Positions 24,887 to 53,679 of a stretch of 64,000 bases of DNA are shown in pieces. This stretch comes from a virus (Duplodnaviria > Caudoviricetes). The position numbers were made by a program, and so were the translations under genes. The notes beneath the pieces were generated by a model that saw nothing but the letters and a program-made list of their open reading frames with translations, searched no databases and was not told where the DNA came from. Each line of letters starts with the position of its first letter. Position 1 is the first letter of the stretch. The DNA lies in IMG/VR virus record IMGVR_UViG_3300042291_000844, positions 128,001 to 192,000 of that record. One strand, 5' to 3'.

Positions 24887-24908
24887 TAATTTATGAGGTT
24901 TTTTATAG

Positions 24909-24982
24909 TGGACCAGATAGGATTCGAACCTATGACCTCAACATTATGAGTGTTTTGCTCTAACCAACTGAGCTACAAGTCC
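24909..24982 (-). tRNA. tRNA-CAT (Ile2-like or Met)
   Basis: Cloverleaf, loop CTCATAA, Ile2-like 5' arm. Confidence 0.85.
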
Positions 24983-25035
24983 ATTATCGTTTAATCTAAC
25001 GATAAAATCTGATATCGTTTCTTTCAACGATAAAA

Positions 25036-25063
25036 AATAAGCAGGTGTGGAATCACCTACTTA
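25036..25063 (-). terminator. Intrinsic terminator-like hairpin
   Basis: TAAGTAGGTG...CACCTGCTTA then T tract. Confidence 0.55.
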
Positions 25064-25120
25064 TATAGTGAATGAGAAACATATGAATCTCTTGCGGCTA
25101 TATCACCAAAGCCCATAAGG

Positions 25121-25234
25121 TGCCGGAGGAAGGATTGGTTACCTACACGATTTCCTTACGGAGTAATCAACTTTTTACAAAGTCACGTCTCAAGGTTTAC
25201 TACCCAAAGGGAATGCTCTTTCCGCCACTCCGGC
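25121..25234 (-). ncRNA. Aberrant tRNA-like RNA (114 nt)
   Basis: Perfect GCCGGAG/CTCCGGC acceptor stem, expanded D region, GTA-containing hairpin, non-canonical T loop. Confidence 0.55.
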
Positions 25235-25250
25235 ATATATCTTTTTTTTG

Positions 25251-25324
25251 TGGAGGATATCGGAGTCGAACCGATGACCCTCTGCGTGCAAGGCAGATGC
25301 TCTAGCCAACTGAGCTAACCCCCC
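25251..25324 (-). tRNA. tRNA-Ala(TGC)
   Basis: Cloverleaf, G3:U70. Confidence 0.95.
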
Positions 25325-25337
25325 ATAAAATTTAACG

Positions 25338-25423
25338 TACCAGAGGTGGGAGTCGAACCCACACGAGCGATTTATGCTCAATAGATTTTAAGTCTATCGT
25401 GTCTACCATTCCACCACTCCGGC
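25338..25423 (-). tRNA. tRNA-Leu(TAA)
   Basis: Class II cloverleaf. Confidence 0.95.
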
Positions 25424-25439
25424 ATTTATTCTAATTATC

Positions 25440-25874
25440 CTAATTTAGTTTACTTAATATTACCCCATTAAGTTTAGTATGATTATCATCTGGATTTATT
25501 AATATATCGATTTTATTTTTCCATCGCGGATTCATTAAATCCCTAACGTAGTAAACTCCATTGTATTTTCCAGCATTTGACACTCTTACTTTTTCACCAA
25601 ATTTAAATTTCTTTTTTATATCTCTACTTACTGCAATCACTCTATGTTTTTTAGGATTATCCTCATCTAATTCAAAGCCACTAGCCGTTTCTAACGGAGT
25701 ATCATCAGTTTGTAAAGGGTCAATTGTATATGTAGTCATCGTAACAACAAATTTCTTAATTTCCTTAACAACCTCTTCCTTTACCATAGTTTCGATTTTG
25801 AATGGATTGGGTGGGGTTACATTTGATGGTAGGATTACCGCAGTAATTAATAATATCAATATTAATCTTTTCAT
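25440..25874 (-). CDS. 3D-domain (MltA-like) secreted protein
   Basis: Signal peptide; T.Y...QTDDTP..TASG; IAVSRD; V.D; IDI. Confidence 0.8.
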   Translation of the reverse strand: MKRLILILLITAVILPSNVTPPNPFKIETMVKEEVVKEIKKFVVTMTTYTIDPLQTDDTPLETASGFELDEDNPKKHRVIAVSRDIKKKFKFGEKVRVSNAGKYNGVYYVRDLMNPRWKNKIDILINPDDNHTKLNGVILSKLN

Positions 25875-25913
25875 AATTTACATTTATGGTTAATAATAAC
25901 TATTACACTTTTG

Positions 25914-25987
25914 TGATTCGGAAAGGATTCGAACCTTTGGCCTATTCATTAGAAGTGAATTGCTCTATCCAACTGAGCTACCGAACC
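25914..25987 (-). tRNA. tRNA-Arg(TCT)
   Basis: Cloverleaf. Confidence 0.95.
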
Positions 25988-25991
25988 ATTG

Positions 25992-26065
25992 CGGACTGTA
26001 CGGGACTCGAACCCGTGAACTCCACCGTGACAGGGTGGCATGATAACCAACTTCACCAACAATCC
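25992..26065 (-). tRNA. tRNA-Asp(GTC)
   Basis: Cloverleaf, G73. Confidence 0.95.
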
Positions 26066-26183
26066 AAATTTTCGGAACTTATGGATTTTCGCCACCAAAA
26101 TCTCTTTTCTCAATTGGCCTCATTGAGTGAGTGTTATCGCGTAATTCGTCATTCCTAATCTAAGGTAATTAATCTTAGATTTG

Positions 26184-26256
26184 AGCCTCCTATCGGAATC
26201 GAACCAATGACCTACTGATTACAAATCAGTTGCTCTACCTGCTGAGCTAAGGAGGC
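26184..26256 (-). tRNA. tRNA-Thr(TGT)
   Basis: Cloverleaf. Confidence 0.95.
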
Positions 26257-26265
26257 TTATGTTTG

Positions 26266-26337
26266 TACTCCCAACGGGATTCGAACCCGTATTACTACCG
26301 TGAAAGGGTAGTGACCTAACCATTAGTCGATAGGAGC
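26266..26337 (-). tRNA. tRNA-Glu(TTC)
   Basis: Cloverleaf. Confidence 0.95.
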
Positions 26338-26356
26338 ATATAATTTTATAACAATG

Positions 26357-26388
26357 TAAAGATACGAAGAATATTCCACATATCCAAA
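26357..26388 (-). promoter_or_regulatory. Bacteroidota-type promoter inside the tRNA array
   Basis: TTTG-N20-TATCTTTA. Confidence 0.7.
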
Positions 26389-26389
26389 T

Positions 26390-26851
26390 TTAATTGTGTA
26401 TTTTTACTAAGTGGTCAGCAGCATAAGTTGCTATTGGCCCTAATGATTTATATCTTACTGAATACCCCATACCTTCAACCATACCCACTGCTTGTCTAAA
26501 CACTTCGTTAGATTTAAAGCGTGGGTCTGGGTTCAAGTCAATATCAATCCACTTAGGTTTTGGAATACCAGCCTCGCGTAATTCTTCGGCAGTTTCAATT
26601 GCAAACCAAACTTCTTGTAATAATCTAACTGAACGGATTCTTTCTCTTTCACTATTCCATCTTCTATACAATACATGTGCACCCTTTCCTTTTCTATATA
26701 AGGCAACTACGATTGCATAAATAGTTTTGTTACCTGAATTTTGTGAATCACAACCAATTAAGATTTCTGCATCGGTATTCGTAATCATATATTCTTTGAT
26801 ATATGAAATCAATTCCACTTCTTCTGCCGTATACAATTTTTTATAAACCAT
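26390..26851 (-). CDS. RNase H-like YkuK/DUF458 family protein
   Basis: IGCDSQ, RL..EV..AI..A, IDIDLN, K......AADH. Confidence 0.85.
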   Translation of the reverse strand: MVYKKLYTAEEVELISYIKEYMITNTDAEILIGCDSQNSGNKTIYAIVVALYRKGKGAHVLYRRWNSERERIRSVRLLQEVWFAIETAEELREAGIPKPKWIDIDLNPDPRFKSNEVFRQAVGMVEGMGYSVRYKSLGPIATYAADHLVKIHN

Positions 26852-26871
26852 AATTTTACCTTTTTATTTTG

Positions 26872-26946
26872 TACCCATAGTAGGACTCGAACCTACAATT
26901 GTGTGGTGTCTAAAGCCACTGCGTATTCCAATTCCGCCATACGGGT
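26872..26946 (-). tRNA. tRNA-Leu(TAG) with short variable region
   Basis: Leu-type D arm, loop TTTAGAC, about 6 nt variable loop. Confidence 0.75.
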
Positions 26947-26955
26947 ATATTTCAG

Positions 26956-27041
26956 CAGAGAGTGAGGGGCTCGAACCCTCGCGGCTTTAACACCCTAACG
27001 ATTTAGCAAACCGTCCCCTTCACCAACTTGGGTAACTCTCT
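26956..27041 (-). tRNA. tRNA-Ser(GCT)
   Basis: Class II cloverleaf, G73. Confidence 0.95.
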
Positions 27042-27043
27042 AT

Positions 27044-27120
27044 TGGGGTGATTAATGGGATTCGAACCCATACTATCAGTACCACAAACTGACGTGCTGA
27101 CCATTAACACTATAAACACC
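27044..27120 (-). tRNA. tRNA-His(GTG)
   Basis: G-1:C73, CCA encoded. Confidence 0.95.
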
Positions 27121-27126
27121 ATATGT

Positions 27127-27195
27127 TGCGTGTTTGAGGTTTGAACTCAATTGGTCATCCTTATGAGAGATAACTCTTTTCCACTAAGCCACGCA
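27127..27195 (-). tRNA. Divergent tRNA-CAT (Met-like)
   Basis: Loop CTCATAA, good T arm, weak D arm. Confidence 0.55.
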
Positions 27196-27200
27196 ATGTG

Positions 27201-27272
27201 AGGCGGGTATTGGATTCGAACCAATGTTAAAGGTTTTGCAGACCTCCTCCTAACCACTCGAGACAACTCGCC
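27201..27272 (-). tRNA. tRNA-Cys(GCA)
   Basis: Cloverleaf, U73. Confidence 0.95.
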
Positions 27273-27337
27273 ATTATTTGTTGTTCACTTTTTTTGTTTG
27301 TTCACCGATAGTGAACACTCTAAATTTGTGAACATTG

Positions 27338-27410
27338 TAGTTCCATAAGGACTCGAACCCTAACTTTTTCATCCGTAGTGAAAGGTGCTATCCAATTACA
27401 CCATAGAACT
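27338..27410 (-). tRNA. tRNA-Arg(ACG)
   Basis: Cloverleaf. Confidence 0.9.
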
Positions 27411-27416
27411 ATTTTG

Positions 27417-27487
27417 CACCCCCTGAAAGATTCGAACTTTCATCTGCGGTTTTGGAGACCGATATGCTACCATTGCACCAAAGAGAT
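27417..27487 (-). tRNA. tRNA-Trp(CCA)
   Basis: Cloverleaf. Confidence 0.9.
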
Positions 27488-27585
27488 AATTAATCAAGAA
27501 GATAGCCAGAAATTAGTGACGTCAAATCTCTTTAAGCTATATGAACTATCTTCTTGTTAGGATTGGTTAATTACTCCAATCTTCG

Positions 27586-27659
27586 TTGGTAATGCGGGAT
27601 TCGAACCTGCCACCTTCTCGGTATCAGCGAGATGCTCTAACCAAATGAGCTAATTACCA
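27586..27659 (-). tRNA. tRNA-Ile(GAT)
   Basis: Cloverleaf. Confidence 0.95.
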
Positions 27660-27721
27660 ATTTTCCTCACTTCTCCGGCTTATTGGACCGGATGCCATAT
27701 AGGGAGTGTGAGGAAACTCCG

Positions 27722-27797
27722 TAGGGTAAGCAGGATTCGAACCTGCGTGCTCTTCGTCCCAAACGAAGCGAGATAAACCGGACTCCTCTATTACCCT
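27722..27797 (-). tRNA. tRNA-Pro(TGG)
   Basis: Cloverleaf. Confidence 0.95.
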
Positions 27798-27803
27798 ATG
27801 TTG

Positions 27804-27877
27804 TGAACCCGAATGGACTCGAACCATTGACTCCCTCATTAAAAGTGAGGTGCTCTAACCAACTGAGCTACGGATTC
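27804..27877 (-). tRNA. tRNA-Lys(TTT)
   Basis: Cloverleaf. Confidence 0.95.
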
Positions 27878-27882
27878 AATTG

Positions 27883-27955
27883 TGGGACCTAATGGAATCG
27901 AACCATTTCCTTTGGATTTTCAGTCCAACGTACGCACCAGCTATACCAAAGCCCC
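27883..27955 (-). tRNA. tRNA-Phe(GAA)
   Basis: Cloverleaf. Confidence 0.95.
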
Positions 27956-27961
27956 TAATTG

Positions 27962-28043
27962 TGAGAGTAGAAGGACTCGAACCTCCGAACTCGAATGAGA
28001 ACTGATTTACAGTCAGTTGCAATTGCCGCTATGCGATACTCCC
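27962..28043 (-). tRNA. tRNA-Tyr(GTA)
   Basis: Class II cloverleaf. Confidence 0.95.
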
Positions 28044-28048
28044 AATTG

Positions 28049-28122
28049 TAGAAGATATAGGATTCGAACCTATGACCCTTTGGATGTAAACCAAATGCTC
28101 TAACCAACTGAGCTAATCTTCT
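28049..28122 (-). tRNA. tRNA-Val(TAC)
   Basis: Cloverleaf. Confidence 0.95.
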
Positions 28123-28127
28123 ATGTG

Positions 28128-28199
28128 TTACTCGAATAGGATTCGAACCTATACTACATCAGTCAAAGTGAGGTATGCTAACCATTACACCATCGAGCA
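28128..28199 (-). tRNA. tRNA-Gln(TTG)
   Basis: Cloverleaf, U1:A72. Confidence 0.9.
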
Positions 28200-28206
28200 A
28201 TTTATG

Positions 28207-28278
28207 AGCGGATGATAGGAATCGAACCTACGTCTCCTACTTGGAAGGAAGGAGTAATAACCATTATACGACATCCGC
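28207..28278 (-). tRNA. tRNA-Gly(TCC)
   Basis: Cloverleaf. Confidence 0.95.
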
Positions 28279-28280
28279 AT

Positions 28281-28290
28281 GTCAAAGAAC
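28281..28290 (-). promoter_or_regulatory. boxA-like antitermination element GTTCTTTGAC
   Basis: Located after the first tRNA of the array; related copies at 29567, 29881 and 31278. Confidence 0.55.
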
Positions 28291-28296
28291 CAATTG

Positions 28297-28368
28297 AGGG
28301 AAGGGAGAATTTCGAAATCTCGACCTGATGATTAACAGTCATCTGCTCTGCCTCTGAGCTACCATCCC
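28297..28368 (-). tRNA. tRNA-Asn(GTT)
   Basis: Cloverleaf; first tRNA after the terminator. Confidence 0.9.
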
Positions 28369-28374
28369 ATAAAC

Positions 28375-28409
28375 GAAAAAACCCTTAACTTTTTTATCAG
28401 TTAAGGGTT
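28375..28409 (-). terminator. Intrinsic terminator (candidate attenuator) directly before the tRNA array
   Basis: AACCCTTAACT-loop-AGTTAAGGGTT followed by a T tract. Confidence 0.85.
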
Positions 28410-28439
28410 CTTAAAATATTGTTATAAAATTTTTACATT

Positions 28440-28562
28440 CTATCCACGTTTTACATCCCTTAACTTACTTCTATCCTCAATCATATTGAAGACACGATTG
28501 CCACCCCAAGCACATTTCTGTGTCGGTAGATAACTAAGCGTATGTATTGTTAAAGTTGCCAT
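28440..28562 (-). CDS. 40-aa leader peptide containing all 20 amino acids; overlaps antiterminator at 28457-28466
   Basis: MATLTIHTLSYLPTQKCAWGGNRVFNMIEDRSKLRDVKRG; below ORF-track length cutoff. Confidence 0.75.
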   Translation of the reverse strand: MATLTIHTLSYLPTQKCAWGGNRVFNMIEDRSKLRDVKRG

Positions 28563-28721
28563 TGTGTATAAGTATATTAAAAACTAATTTATGTTTGTTT
28601 TTGTGTTAATAAAATAAAAAAAAGTAACTCATCTTCAATATGCACCATCCATGTCATGCACTGGTTGACAAAAGCCTCGATAAATTACTTAATATTTTTT
28701 AAAAAAAAATCTGGATGAGAA

Positions 28722-29570
28722 TACTCCATCTTGTGAACCAGCTTTATAAGGGTTATTGGTTACCTTAATTTCCACTACCTTTTGAGTAGTACCGATTCAA
28801 TGTGGGTAAGTAATGCCTACCAATCATAAAGTTACAACCTACTCTCTTTTTACTCCGCCACTTCGAATCTGCCGACCCGATTCACACCTCGCGATGCTAG
28901 AAGTTTTTCGAAAGAATCACATTTACCTTGAGAGTATTTGTGGCAGTGAACGACTCACTACTATGTACACACCTTTCACTTGCAACTGGTAACCACTTTT
29001 TCTTTTATTTTTATTTGATTTTCACCATTGAAAGTAAAAGTTTTGGTTTGTAGAAGAATTCAAGTAGTGGATTACCACTAGCTCCGTTCCATTTTGAAGA
29101 ACGGAATACTATACTACTCGATACGATATCCCTATCGTCATATTTTAAGTCCACTTCATATCTAAACCTTTGGTAAGGTAAAGATAAGGATAATAACAAC
29201 ACCACTTGTACATCATCTTACCTTTCGATTTTAAGTAAACTTTCATATTGAATCACGCAATGATATGGAGAGATTAAGTCCGTACTTCTTGCAATAACTC
29301 TATGGATTATTCTTATTGGTGTCCCCACCTCAACTGAACTTCTACCTAGCCCAGTCATTAAACCATTTCACTACGGAGTTACCCTCACTAATCAGGTCTA
29401 ATGATATTCCACTTGCATACTCAAGCTCCATTCCTTTCGGTCTGAAACCGCAAATTAATTAACCAACTAATTCACTTTATCCTACTTTCGTAGTTTATTT
29501 AACCACCATATGCGGCGGGTATGTACTATGTACCACAAGGATACTATGTACAATATGTTTCGATAATTTA
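28722..29570 (-). ncRNA. Large ornate ncRNA, GOLLD-like (~850 nt)
   Basis: No credible ORF, many hairpins, raised GC, own promoter and boxA, adjacent to tRNAs; family assigned by size and context only. Confidence 0.55.
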
Positions 29571-29591
29571 AAGAACTTTTTTTTGTTAAGT

Positions 29592-29623
29592 CAAAGATAC
29601 GAAATCTTTTTCACTTTTCCAAA
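29592..29623 (-). promoter_or_regulatory. Bacteroidota-type promoter for the large ncRNA
   Basis: TTTG-N20-TATCTTTG. Confidence 0.8.
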
Positions 29624-29697
29624 TTTATTTTAAACTTTTTTTTGTTATGTCTAATACCGAGTATCTTTCATCGCCTTTAAGTTTAGAACTAACTTTG

Positions 29698-29729
29698 TAA
29701 AGATACGAAAACATTTTCACATTTCCAAA
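29698..29729 (-). promoter_or_regulatory. Bacteroidota-type promoter
   Basis: TTTG-N20-TATCTTTA. Confidence 0.75.
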
Positions 29730-29801
29730 TCTTTTTTTAATTATTTTTTGTGATATTATATATAAGTATATAAAAATATACCAAACGTAAAATAATCATT
29801 G

Positions 29802-29873
29802 TAGCGGGTGAAGGATTCGAACCTCCGACCTATAGGTTATGAGCCTACCGAGCTACCACTGCTCTAACCCGCA
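29802..29873 (-). tRNA. tRNA-fMet(CAT), initiator-like
   Basis: 1:72 mismatch, TAGAGCAGTGGTAGCTCG D arm, loop CTCATAA. Confidence 0.9.
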
Positions 29874-29894
29874 ATATAATTTTAAAGAACATAA

Positions 29895-30000
29895 AACAAA
29901 GTAAGATAATGATATCCGGCGTTATAGTTTACCACTTATGGTTGGACTTCACACATTCGGTTTTATTAGATGTTGGCTTCAACCACTATCTTATTTTGTT
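29895..30000 (-). ncRNA. ~106 nt rod-like RNA, 6S-like candidate
   Basis: 16 of 17 pairs in the closing stem; begins immediately after a promoter. Confidence 0.45.
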
Positions 30001-30890: not shown

Positions 30891-31266
30891 TGGTGGAGGT
30901 GGAGGGAGTCGAACCCTCGTCCAAATACGGATTTAATAAACTTCATTCACAAGCTTAGTTAGTTTTTCTTAACTAACAAAATATTCGGTTGGTTCTTCAC
31001 CATCGGCAACCGATAAACAATAGGTGATTCGATTTTGGGTTCAATCACTTTTCTACCTTTGTACACATTCTTTTTAAAGTCCCACGATGTGTGCGGGAGG
31101 GATTAGGCTGCTATAGCGTAATCAGCACCAACGAAAGACATTACATCTTCGAAGGTCATTGTAGATAATTCTACGTCGTTTATTGTTCGATAGGTATTTA
31201 CGGATTTCCATCTAACCCGGCTTGCAACTTACCAACTCATCGTACCTGTCAAAACCAGGCACCCCC
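30891..31266 (-). ncRNA. ssrA: tmRNA
   Basis: 5' GGGGGTGCCTGGTTTTGACAGG, G3:U70, 3' GGTTCGACTCCC...ACCA; internal tag ORF 31103-31177 ending YAIAA. Confidence 0.95.
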
Positions 31267-53270: not shown

Positions 53271-53292
53271 TCTAAAAAAGAAGTACCCACCC

Positions 53293-53679
53293 TTAACTTC
53301 CCATTTGAAGCCTATCATTGGAATAACACTCCCGAATCCCATTAAGGATATCCCTACCATCTTCCCCATAGACCTCGAAATCTAAGACTCCCCCTAAATG
53401 TTTGACAATCGCTGAACCATTTAGGGTAATCAAATGGGGTGTATGACCATCTTCTAGAAACCCTATATGGACTTCGAATCCCTTGCCAAAGTTATGTAAG
53501 GAATCAAAATGCCAAATCATCTTTTCAATACCTGCCTTATGGCGTTCGGTTAATCGGTAGTTTCCGTTTGGAGTACGTGTTCCTGTTGGACCACTAGTAA
53601 CTGTTACTATTGGTATTGTATTTCCACTACTCATTACCTTTTTAATAATTCCTAATGTATTTGCTGTATTCATACTCAT
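53293..53679 (-). CDS. Hypothetical protein
   Basis: ORF track. Confidence 0.55.
   Translation of the reverse strand: MSMNTANTLGIIKKVMSSGNTIPIVTVTSGPTGTRTPNGNYRLTERHKAGIEKMIWHFDSLHNFGKGFEVHIGFLEDGHTPHLITLNGSAIVKHLGGVLDFEVYGEDGRDILNGIRECYSNDRLQMGS

Follow-up and report, generated by a model that had tools for sequence, protein, structure and literature searches.

A 40-codon open reading frame (ORF) that precedes the tRNA array of this phage and encodes every one of the 20 amino acids is probably the leader of a trp-type, ribosome-mediated transcription attenuator that serves the array as a general sensor of decoding speed, translation of the leader and read-through of its terminator both being inferred. 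What the comparison of homologous loci establishes, within the limits of sequence data, is a conserved ORF, an all-20 composition that has been kept, three alternative helices that covary, and a fixed site before the array. The attenuator reading had been put forward in a preliminary description of this DNA and is supported by that comparison; the logic that would lead from ribosome stalling to read-through, and the physiological trigger (starvation, loss of host tRNA or nuclease defence), remain inferences.

Organization of the locus

The features under discussion are collected in Table 1. They lie on the minus strand of the window, by which we mean the whole stretch of 64,000 nt that was analysed (GC content 32%), in the order tRNA-Met, GOLLD RNA, an AT-rich spacer of 150 nt, leader ORF, a spacer of 27 nt, terminator, 7 nt, and tRNA-Asn. 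Both the coordinates and the peptide of the unannotated 40-codon ORF on which the preliminary description was built could be re-derived. Its further observations that the terminator ends a few nucleotides before tRNA-Asn (the gap is 7 nt, with the gene starting at 28368) and that the array covers 20 amino acids (22 tRNA genes, 28368..24908) are correct, as is its report that the segment AAGTTAAGGG within the ORF is identical to the terminator 3' arm. The two copies lie at 28466..28457 and 28391..28382, and about 0.24 copies per window would be expected by chance. A third copy, at 53299..53290, sits within a coding region and was set aside as a chance occurrence.

Table 1. Features of the leader locus and its surroundings, in window coordinates
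Feature	Position	Strand	Remarks
tRNA-Met	29873..29801	-	upstream of GOLLD RNA
GOLLD RNA	28712..29520	-	Rfam RF02032 match 29121..28712, 264.9 bits; 5' half by homology
Promoter-like motif	28568..28600	-	AAACAAAC-N16-TATACTTAT; TATACT is the -10-like hexamer
Leader ORF, 40 codons	28562..28440	-	ATG ORF; 20/20 amino acids by codon 30
Region 1, CTTTAAC, codons 3-5	28549..28555	-	predicted 5' strand of helix P1; partner, region 2
Region 2, AAGTTAAGGG, codons 33-36	28466..28457	-	predicted alternative partners: region 1 (P1) or region 3 (antiterminator)
Region 3, terminator 5' arm	28399..28412	-	core CCCTTAAC at 28407..28400
Region 4, terminator 3' arm	28376..28390	-	arm 28390..28377 overlaps T6 run 28381..28376
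Terminator hairpin and T-run	28412..28376	-	14 pairs, T6
tRNA-Asn(GTT)	28296..28368	-	first gene of the array, 7 nt past the T-run
tRNA array, 22 genes	24908..28368	-	all 20 amino acids covered; two small ORFs embedded

The account of the region given in the preliminary description was right in respect of the leader, the terminator and tRNA-Asn, and overlooked the GOLLD RNA just upstream. Homology to GOLLD extends from about 29516 (29582 in L017 and L018, two related loci) to about 28770, and the RNA ends with a hairpin and T9 run of its own. GOLLD is found upstream on the same strand in 15 of the 15 viral loci tested, with one or two tRNA genes in between in several of them. In four lake metatranscriptomes it far exceeds every other RNA of the region in abundance, with a word depth in the hundreds to thousands. 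A search of Rfam over 28300-29900 at E values up to 1 returned only GOLLD, tRNA and a single rox2 match, with no T-box; the rox2 match (E 0.02, below the gathering score) lies inside the GOLLD region. We also considered whether the leader is itself a part of the GOLLD RNA and rejected the idea: the match at 29121..28712 spans the model from end to end, and the ORF starts 150 nt downstream. GOLLD is known as a phage-borne RNA that often occurs near tRNA islands (10.1101/2024.12.08.627333).

Downstream of the leader, tRNA-Asn(GTT) starts 0-14 nt past the T-run in 55 of 57 loci, a gap so short that it leaves no room for a separate promoter of the tRNA array. Directly past tRNA-Asn, at 28281-28290 (minus strand), is a boxA-like motif, GTTCTTTGACA, that is conserved in L017 and L018 (alignment A1). 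Should it recruit antitermination factors, polymerases that have passed the attenuator would be resistant to termination over the rest of the array.

A second leader was sought before another hairpin of the array, at 25064..25037 upstream of the last tRNA-Met, and no ORF was found there. The roughly 130 nt between tRNA-Ala and this T-run hairpin (25118-25248, minus strand) have the potential for long-range pairing (GCCGGAG...CTCCGGC) and are 76% conserved in L001, L002 and L019. The stretch contains no ORF, matches nothing in Rfam and may be a structured RNA. Elsewhere on the same strand the window carries a tmRNA (30891-31266). Phage tmRNA tags are unusually long in most relatives, L018, L100 and L101 included (24-26 residues, ending in AIAA or AVAA), and the tag of L017 is short (GEYNYAIAA).

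Composition of the leader in the window

No single amino acid is enriched in the leader: all 20 are present, and most of the rare ones occur exactly once. The preliminary description had placed the full set within the first 30 codons, which is true and can be tightened to 24 residues (H7-D30). Our recount agrees with its figure of 28 distinct codons among the first 31, and the G/C-ending codons that it singled out as atypical of AT-rich DNA are indeed present, lying largely within RNA stems. The chance of such a composition, which it had left to be computed, comes to about 1e-4 per 30-residue window and about 1e-6 per 24-residue window for 20 of 20 amino acids, and these figures hold under gene-like or base-composition models.

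There are about 28,500 stop-free windows of 30 codons in the analysed DNA, and one other locus has all 20 amino acids in 30 codons, inside a real gene at 2575-2976. Across 379 kb of related phage DNA we counted 1,409 ATG-initiated ORFs of 25-60 codons, 20 of which contain all 20 amino acids; 15 of these 20 are members of the leader family described below, and the other five (three unique) overlie tRNA genes. The all-20 composition of a single window could therefore be luck, the more so as the feature was chosen post hoc from a very large scan, and the decisive evidence had to come from relatives. On the most sceptical account the locus would be no more than an ORF and a 10-nt repeat that happen to lie beside an ordinary terminator. 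This account can draw on the post hoc choice of the all-20 feature in one window, and on the tendency of ORFs over structured RNA to be more diverse in amino acids than the average, of which the three unique all-20 ORFs over tRNA genes in the 379 kb are examples. We return to it once the homologous loci have been described.

A family of homologous leaders

Relatives were gathered in two rounds. The first, which started from a neighbouring protein, yielded 19 loci in IMG/VR, the phages concerned reaching about 316 kb; L017 and L018 are among these loci, are syntenic with the window and keep the ORF, the second half of which has diverged. The second round used an alignment of the three peptides then available, those of the window, L017 and L018, and yielded 17 viral and 44 metagenome loci (61 in total). 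At least 133 clusters of the leader family, all of them unnamed, are present in a large protein database and come from uncultured lake phages. Among GenBank phages there was no close relative, matches being limited to tRNA and GOLLD pieces, and a tblastn search of GenBank phages with a family peptide gave no matches; we know of no cultured phage that bears the leader. The sequencing runs that contain the window's own stretch are from lake or other fresh water, except for one RNA run labelled marine. Pfam gave no match for the leader peptide, and PHROGs gave no useful context from ten proteins of the window.

In 58 of 58 complete loci there is an ATG ORF of 39-53 codons, followed by a G-rich hairpin and a T-run. 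The family includes leaders of 47 codons, as in L026. Homologous loci without the ORF or without the 10-nt complementarity would, according to the preliminary description, have refuted its proposal, and none appeared: the ORF and T-run hairpin are universal in this set, and the complementarity of the in-ORF segment to the terminator 5' arm is kept, with compensatory changes, in an alignment of 29 sequences (A4). The same description had asked whether composition is conserved while sequence diverges; it is, with the all-20 set kept down to 30-40% identity. After clustering of the family at 90% identity, the complete set of 20 amino acids was counted in 113 of 120 listed representatives, each of 40-55 codons. 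The seven incomplete ones comprise four that lack only Glu, one that lacks Arg, one that lacks Cys, and one with an apparently frameshifted tail.

A Glu-less leader might be thought to go with an array that has no tRNA-Glu. This was rejected, since tRNA-Glu is encoded in such arrays, beyond an inserted gene of 2.2 kb. The inserted gene, seen in two loci with Glu-less leaders (L100:10353-12533 and L101:10354-12570), lies in mid-array after tRNA-His, encodes 726-738 residues and gives faint fibronectin-type-III matches. As a separate observation, the tRNA-Asn behind the terminator of L018 (8640-8725) has decayed, with mutated arms and no ARAGORN call, and the leader and terminator of this locus are intact.

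Three mutually exclusive helices

The preliminary description recognised an attenuation architecture made of what we call regions 2, 3 and 4, all of which hold up by covariation, and it overlooked region 1, at codons 3-5. The predicted helices give regions 1-4 the complete four-segment layout of a trp attenuator. Pairing and covariation were counted in Python over the 29-sequence alignment. In the helix between regions 1 and 2 (P1), 93% of cells are paired and double compensatory changes are found in 4 of 8 pairs; the corresponding values are 98% and 4 of 7 pairs for the antiterminator (regions 2 and 3), and 99% and 2 of 7 pairs for the terminator (regions 3 and 4). For each of the three helices the covariation score is greater than that of all 500 shuffles. 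P1 has 7-8 pairs in each of the 29 sequences, and its substitutions include double changes from A-T to G-C. In the minimum free energy folds of every member, nt 8-14 (codons 3-5) are paired with region 2; covarying hairpins (columns 43:52 and 44:51 are examples) are enclosed and the terminator is left intact.

Two sets of substitutions bear on the role of region 2. In L074-L079, regions 1, 2 and 3 have changed jointly (TTGAC / GTCAG / CTGAC), and the terminator 3' arm has kept a T opposite the new G. Five other cases are sequences with an A in region 2 opposite a T of region 3, where the terminator 3' arm retains a G·T wobble. Because region 2 forms Watson-Crick pairs at positions where the 3' arm only wobbles, it is selected to pair with region 3 and is not a mere copy of the 3' arm. 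In addition, the in-frame stop codon lies exactly 14 nt past region 2 in 20 of 29 sequences, despite their differing tails.

We carried out the comparison of alternative folds that had been proposed as a check, using the window leader as a transcript that reaches region 3 without region 4 and masking a 30-nt ribosome footprint placed by its A-site codon. With the ribosome at codons 2-29 the antiterminator is the best fold, and with the ribosome at codons 32-38 the antiterminator is lost. The earlier inference that a stall at any codon before about 30 would free the antiterminator probably goes too far as regards the final one or two amino acids: the last of the set lies only 5-20 nt before region 2, and a ribosome stalled there may mask the switch instead of freeing region 2. 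In some relatives the 1:2 and 2:3 helices are nearly equal in energy for mid-ORF footprints (in L074, for instance, 1:2 is still the best fold with a mid-ORF footprint masked), and in such cases the outcome would depend on kinetics and on the ribosome's bulk.

Alternative helices of this kind would also be found in an RNA-only switch of the riboswitch or T-box type, in which a domain closed by P1 binds a ligand, a tRNA or a protein that stabilises P1, the terminator forms as a result, and the reading frame is a passenger. The layout is that of a classic OFF-riboswitch expression platform, with the 3' strand of P1 competing for the terminator 5' arm, and the covarying interior hairpins and the unusually elaborate and very stable fold of the window leader (z = -5.2) would suit a P1-closed aptamer as well. 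Against an aptamer stands that the 3' half of the domain ranges in length from about 25 to 70 nt, with no alignment possible from one subfamily to another, and that nothing in Rfam, T-box included, matches it at E values up to 1. The remaining evidence on this alternative concerns the reading frame and is weighed below.

Retention of the complete amino acid set

The composition of the leader is a property of its reading frame. In 40 unique DNA sequences, frame 1 is free of stops and encodes 19.9 different amino acids on average. None of the five remaining frames of the same sequences ever reaches 20: they are interrupted by 2-5 stops and encode 15.7-16.6 different amino acids. Of the 29 aligned sequences, 25 have the full set, and in each of these the 20th amino acid to appear lies ahead of region 2.

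Rare residues are kept in number and moved in position. A single Cys is present in 103 of 120 peptides, and it sits at 10 or more different positions, among them 10, 17, 19, 20, 23, 25, 29, 35 and 42. Where C10 is absent, Cys is found elsewhere in 18 of 19 peptides, against 15 of 68 where C10 is present (Fisher 8e-9, uncorrected for phylogeny). Internal Met relocates in the same manner (3e-7) and Tyr more weakly (0.011), both values again uncorrected for relatedness. An independent-pairs test offered only 3-4 usable pairs per trait, nearly all of them in the expected direction and too few for significance on their own.

We also simulated neutral evolution on the family's own tree, with its amino acid frequencies and gap pattern and with the all-20 consensus as the root. 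Over 300 runs, 37 of 120 tips stayed complete on average and never more than 87, against 112 in the real family. Starting from a random root lowered the mean to 5 complete tips. If alignment columns are instead sampled independently, all 20 amino acids are obtained in 7-25% of draws, against 12 of 13 real subfamilies. Judged by these comparisons, the all-20 composition is kept by evolution.

The account by chance can now be assessed. It is contradicted by the conservation of the relevant features in homologues that were examined only after the hypothesis had been stated, by covariation in three helices, and by the simulation and the frame controls, and we regard it as practically negligible.

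Possible promoter, transcript and translation signals

The motif AAACAAAC-N16-TATACTTAT occurs once in the window, where 0.02 occurrences are expected, and its TATACT hexamer ends 8 nt before the leader ATG. In most loci a version of it (AAACWAAC ... TATAYT) is conserved and ends 8-18 nt before the ATG, and the sequence further upstream is unrelated. The motif suggests a promoter whose putative transcript is leaderless or has a very short leader, the start site being inferred. No assignment to a promoter class was possible, the motif not being repeated elsewhere in the window. Because transcripts may start within a few nucleotides of the ATG, conservation of the ATG could partly reflect constraints on the promoter.

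Several properties point to use of the reading frame. The ORF is intact in 40 of 40 unique sequences, despite several tail types that cannot be aligned with one another. The ratio pN/pS is 0.52 in frame, which is only moderately below 1, and 0.79 and 0.92 out of frame. Within the ORF, indels come in lengths divisible by three or as +1/-1 pairs that compensate each other, and those after the ORF are of any length, although this analysis is noisy and the placement of gaps by the aligner uncertain. A Shine-Dalgarno-like motif precedes only 1 of the 60 long minus-strand ORFs of the window. As the genes of this phage are generally without one, its absence before the leader is no argument against translation. 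The upstream regions of the same 60 ORFs are A-rich, with a peak at -12/-13; such starts, A-rich and poor in Shine-Dalgarno motifs, fit a host that does not use Shine-Dalgarno pairing, presumably one like the Bacteroidota. Translation of the leader is inferred from the integrity of its frame, pN/pS, the position of its stop codon and its composition, without direct evidence.

Metatranscriptomes add little on this point. Depth over the leader is only 2-4, the tRNAs are hardly covered, and RNA contigs are too thin over the leader. One RNA contig of 151 nt, from a single run, ends at 28376, which is the end of the T-run and by itself proves nothing about termination; another extends 70 nt upstream of the ATG. 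The start and end of the transcript cannot be read from these data.

The RNA-only switch fits a promoter-like motif that leaves little or no 5' UTR. What it leaves unexplained is an intact frame in 40 of 40 unique sequences where the other frames hold 2-5 stops, a kept all-20 composition with a single Cys, Met and Tyr that relocate, an in-frame stop fixed 14 nt past region 2, and the in-frame pN/pS signal. We consider a switch of this sort unlikely.

If the frame is translated, its product might instead be a small protein that has its own function, perhaps in trans, in which case the hairpin would be a plain terminator or the switch would regulate the peptide and not the tRNAs. The N-terminal MKTLxLHT and the residues W19 and G21 are conserved at the amino acid level, and gene callers predict the ORF in many assemblies. 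These conserved residues, on the other hand, coincide with RNA stems; the peptide belongs to no Pfam family; and its AlphaFold model is poor (pLDDT 55, pTM 0.12, from a 39-sequence alignment), which fits the lack of a fold of its own and is weak evidence. A functional fold, moreover, predicts no one-of-each composition with shifting positions, and under this explanation the array is left without room for a promoter after the terminator. We give it little credence.

Proposed mechanism and its implications

For the attenuator, the following sequence of events is envisaged. Transcription from a promoter directly before the ATG would produce a leaderless or short-leader RNA. Without a ribosome, the 1:2 helix would form first, both of its strands being made before region 3; the terminator would then form, and transcription would stop 7 nt before tRNA-Asn. 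A fast ribosome would cover region 2 and then sit at the stop codon, in what would be the loop of the 2:3 helix, while 1:2 re-forms behind it, again with termination as the result. A ribosome delayed between regions 1 and 2 would block 1:2 and leave region 2 free, so that 2:3 would pair and polymerase would read through into the 22 tRNA genes. Since no amino acid is missing from the sensing stretch, slow decoding at any of the 20 would lead to more tRNA, and an ample supply of charged tRNA would turn the array off. The outcome would be a homeostat of the phage's own tRNA supply.

With rather less assurance, we also favour a broader view in which such 'pangram' leaders of giant phages are mini-genes selected to contain each amino acid at least once, and act as universal sensors of decoding speed that place the viral tRNA set under closed-loop control. 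Any loss of charged tRNA, whether through starvation, phage-induced host shut-off or host anticodon nucleases, would then switch the array on.

Why large phages carry near-complete tRNA sets is debated, with proposals that include the tuning of codon usage, a substitute for host tRNAs that have been degraded, and evasion of anticodon nucleases, and the regulation by phages of their own tRNA genes is, to our knowledge, essentially unknown. A leader that reads decoding speed for every amino acid would show that phage tRNA supply is driven by demand. Such a leader would double as a compact, naturally occurring sensor of translation capacity as a whole. At about 190 nt, the element is small, and it is self-contained. 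Neither an attenuator that precedes tRNA genes nor a leader with every amino acid turned up in full-text searches of the literature, and we are not aware that selection of a peptide for one of each amino acid, with position free, has been described. If the proposal is true, no earlier attenuator would have been shown to act on tRNA genes, and no earlier leader to be selected for amino acid completeness.

Comparison with known systems

In its design the element resembles a leader-peptide attenuator, yet it fails one of the defining features of that class, enrichment for the cognate amino acid, and it precedes tRNA genes. The attenuators of amino acid operons (trpL, hisL, pheL, thrL and the multivalent ilv leaders) combine a short leader ORF with mutually exclusive 1:2, 2:3 and 3:4 helices and a terminator, and stalling of the ribosome leads to read-through. 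General models of leader-peptide attenuation are available (PMC1183508). The phage element shares with these systems the leader ORF, the four segments with 1:2, 2:3 and 3:4 pairing, and the intrinsic terminator before the genes. It differs from leaders of the trpL type in its codon make-up, where each of the 20 amino acids appears about once and none has a run of codons; in an ORF that spans regions 1 and 2, where that of a trpL-type leader ends between them; and in the genes downstream, which encode phage tRNAs and not biosynthetic enzymes. The sequences are unrelated.

The pheM leader of pheST responds to phenylalanine alone and controls a synthetase. It is a leader-peptide attenuator placed before translation-apparatus genes, as the phage element would be, and the phage leader would act on tRNAs where pheM acts on the synthetase. 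T-box elements bind one uncharged tRNA directly, without a ribosome, by means of a Stem I specifier and the T-box motif. The likeness lies in control of translation-supply genes by tRNA status through a terminator and antiterminator, and the difference in the conserved ORF of the phage leader and its lack of a T-box match. From GOLLD, the leader is distinct as a separate unit downstream, outside the RF02032 match.

The nearest system in logic is the uORF of whiB7/wblC in Actinobacteria. It is switched on by depletion of many different amino acids, tRNAs or synthetases, and the composition of the uORF, which is enriched in alanine, sets what is sensed (PMC10274678). In both systems a uORF with a terminator and antiterminator would act as a general sensor of translation stress. 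The whiB7/wblC uORF, however, is rich in alanine and controls a cellular transcription factor, whereas the phage leader is balanced in composition and stands before viral tRNA genes, and the two are unrelated in sequence.
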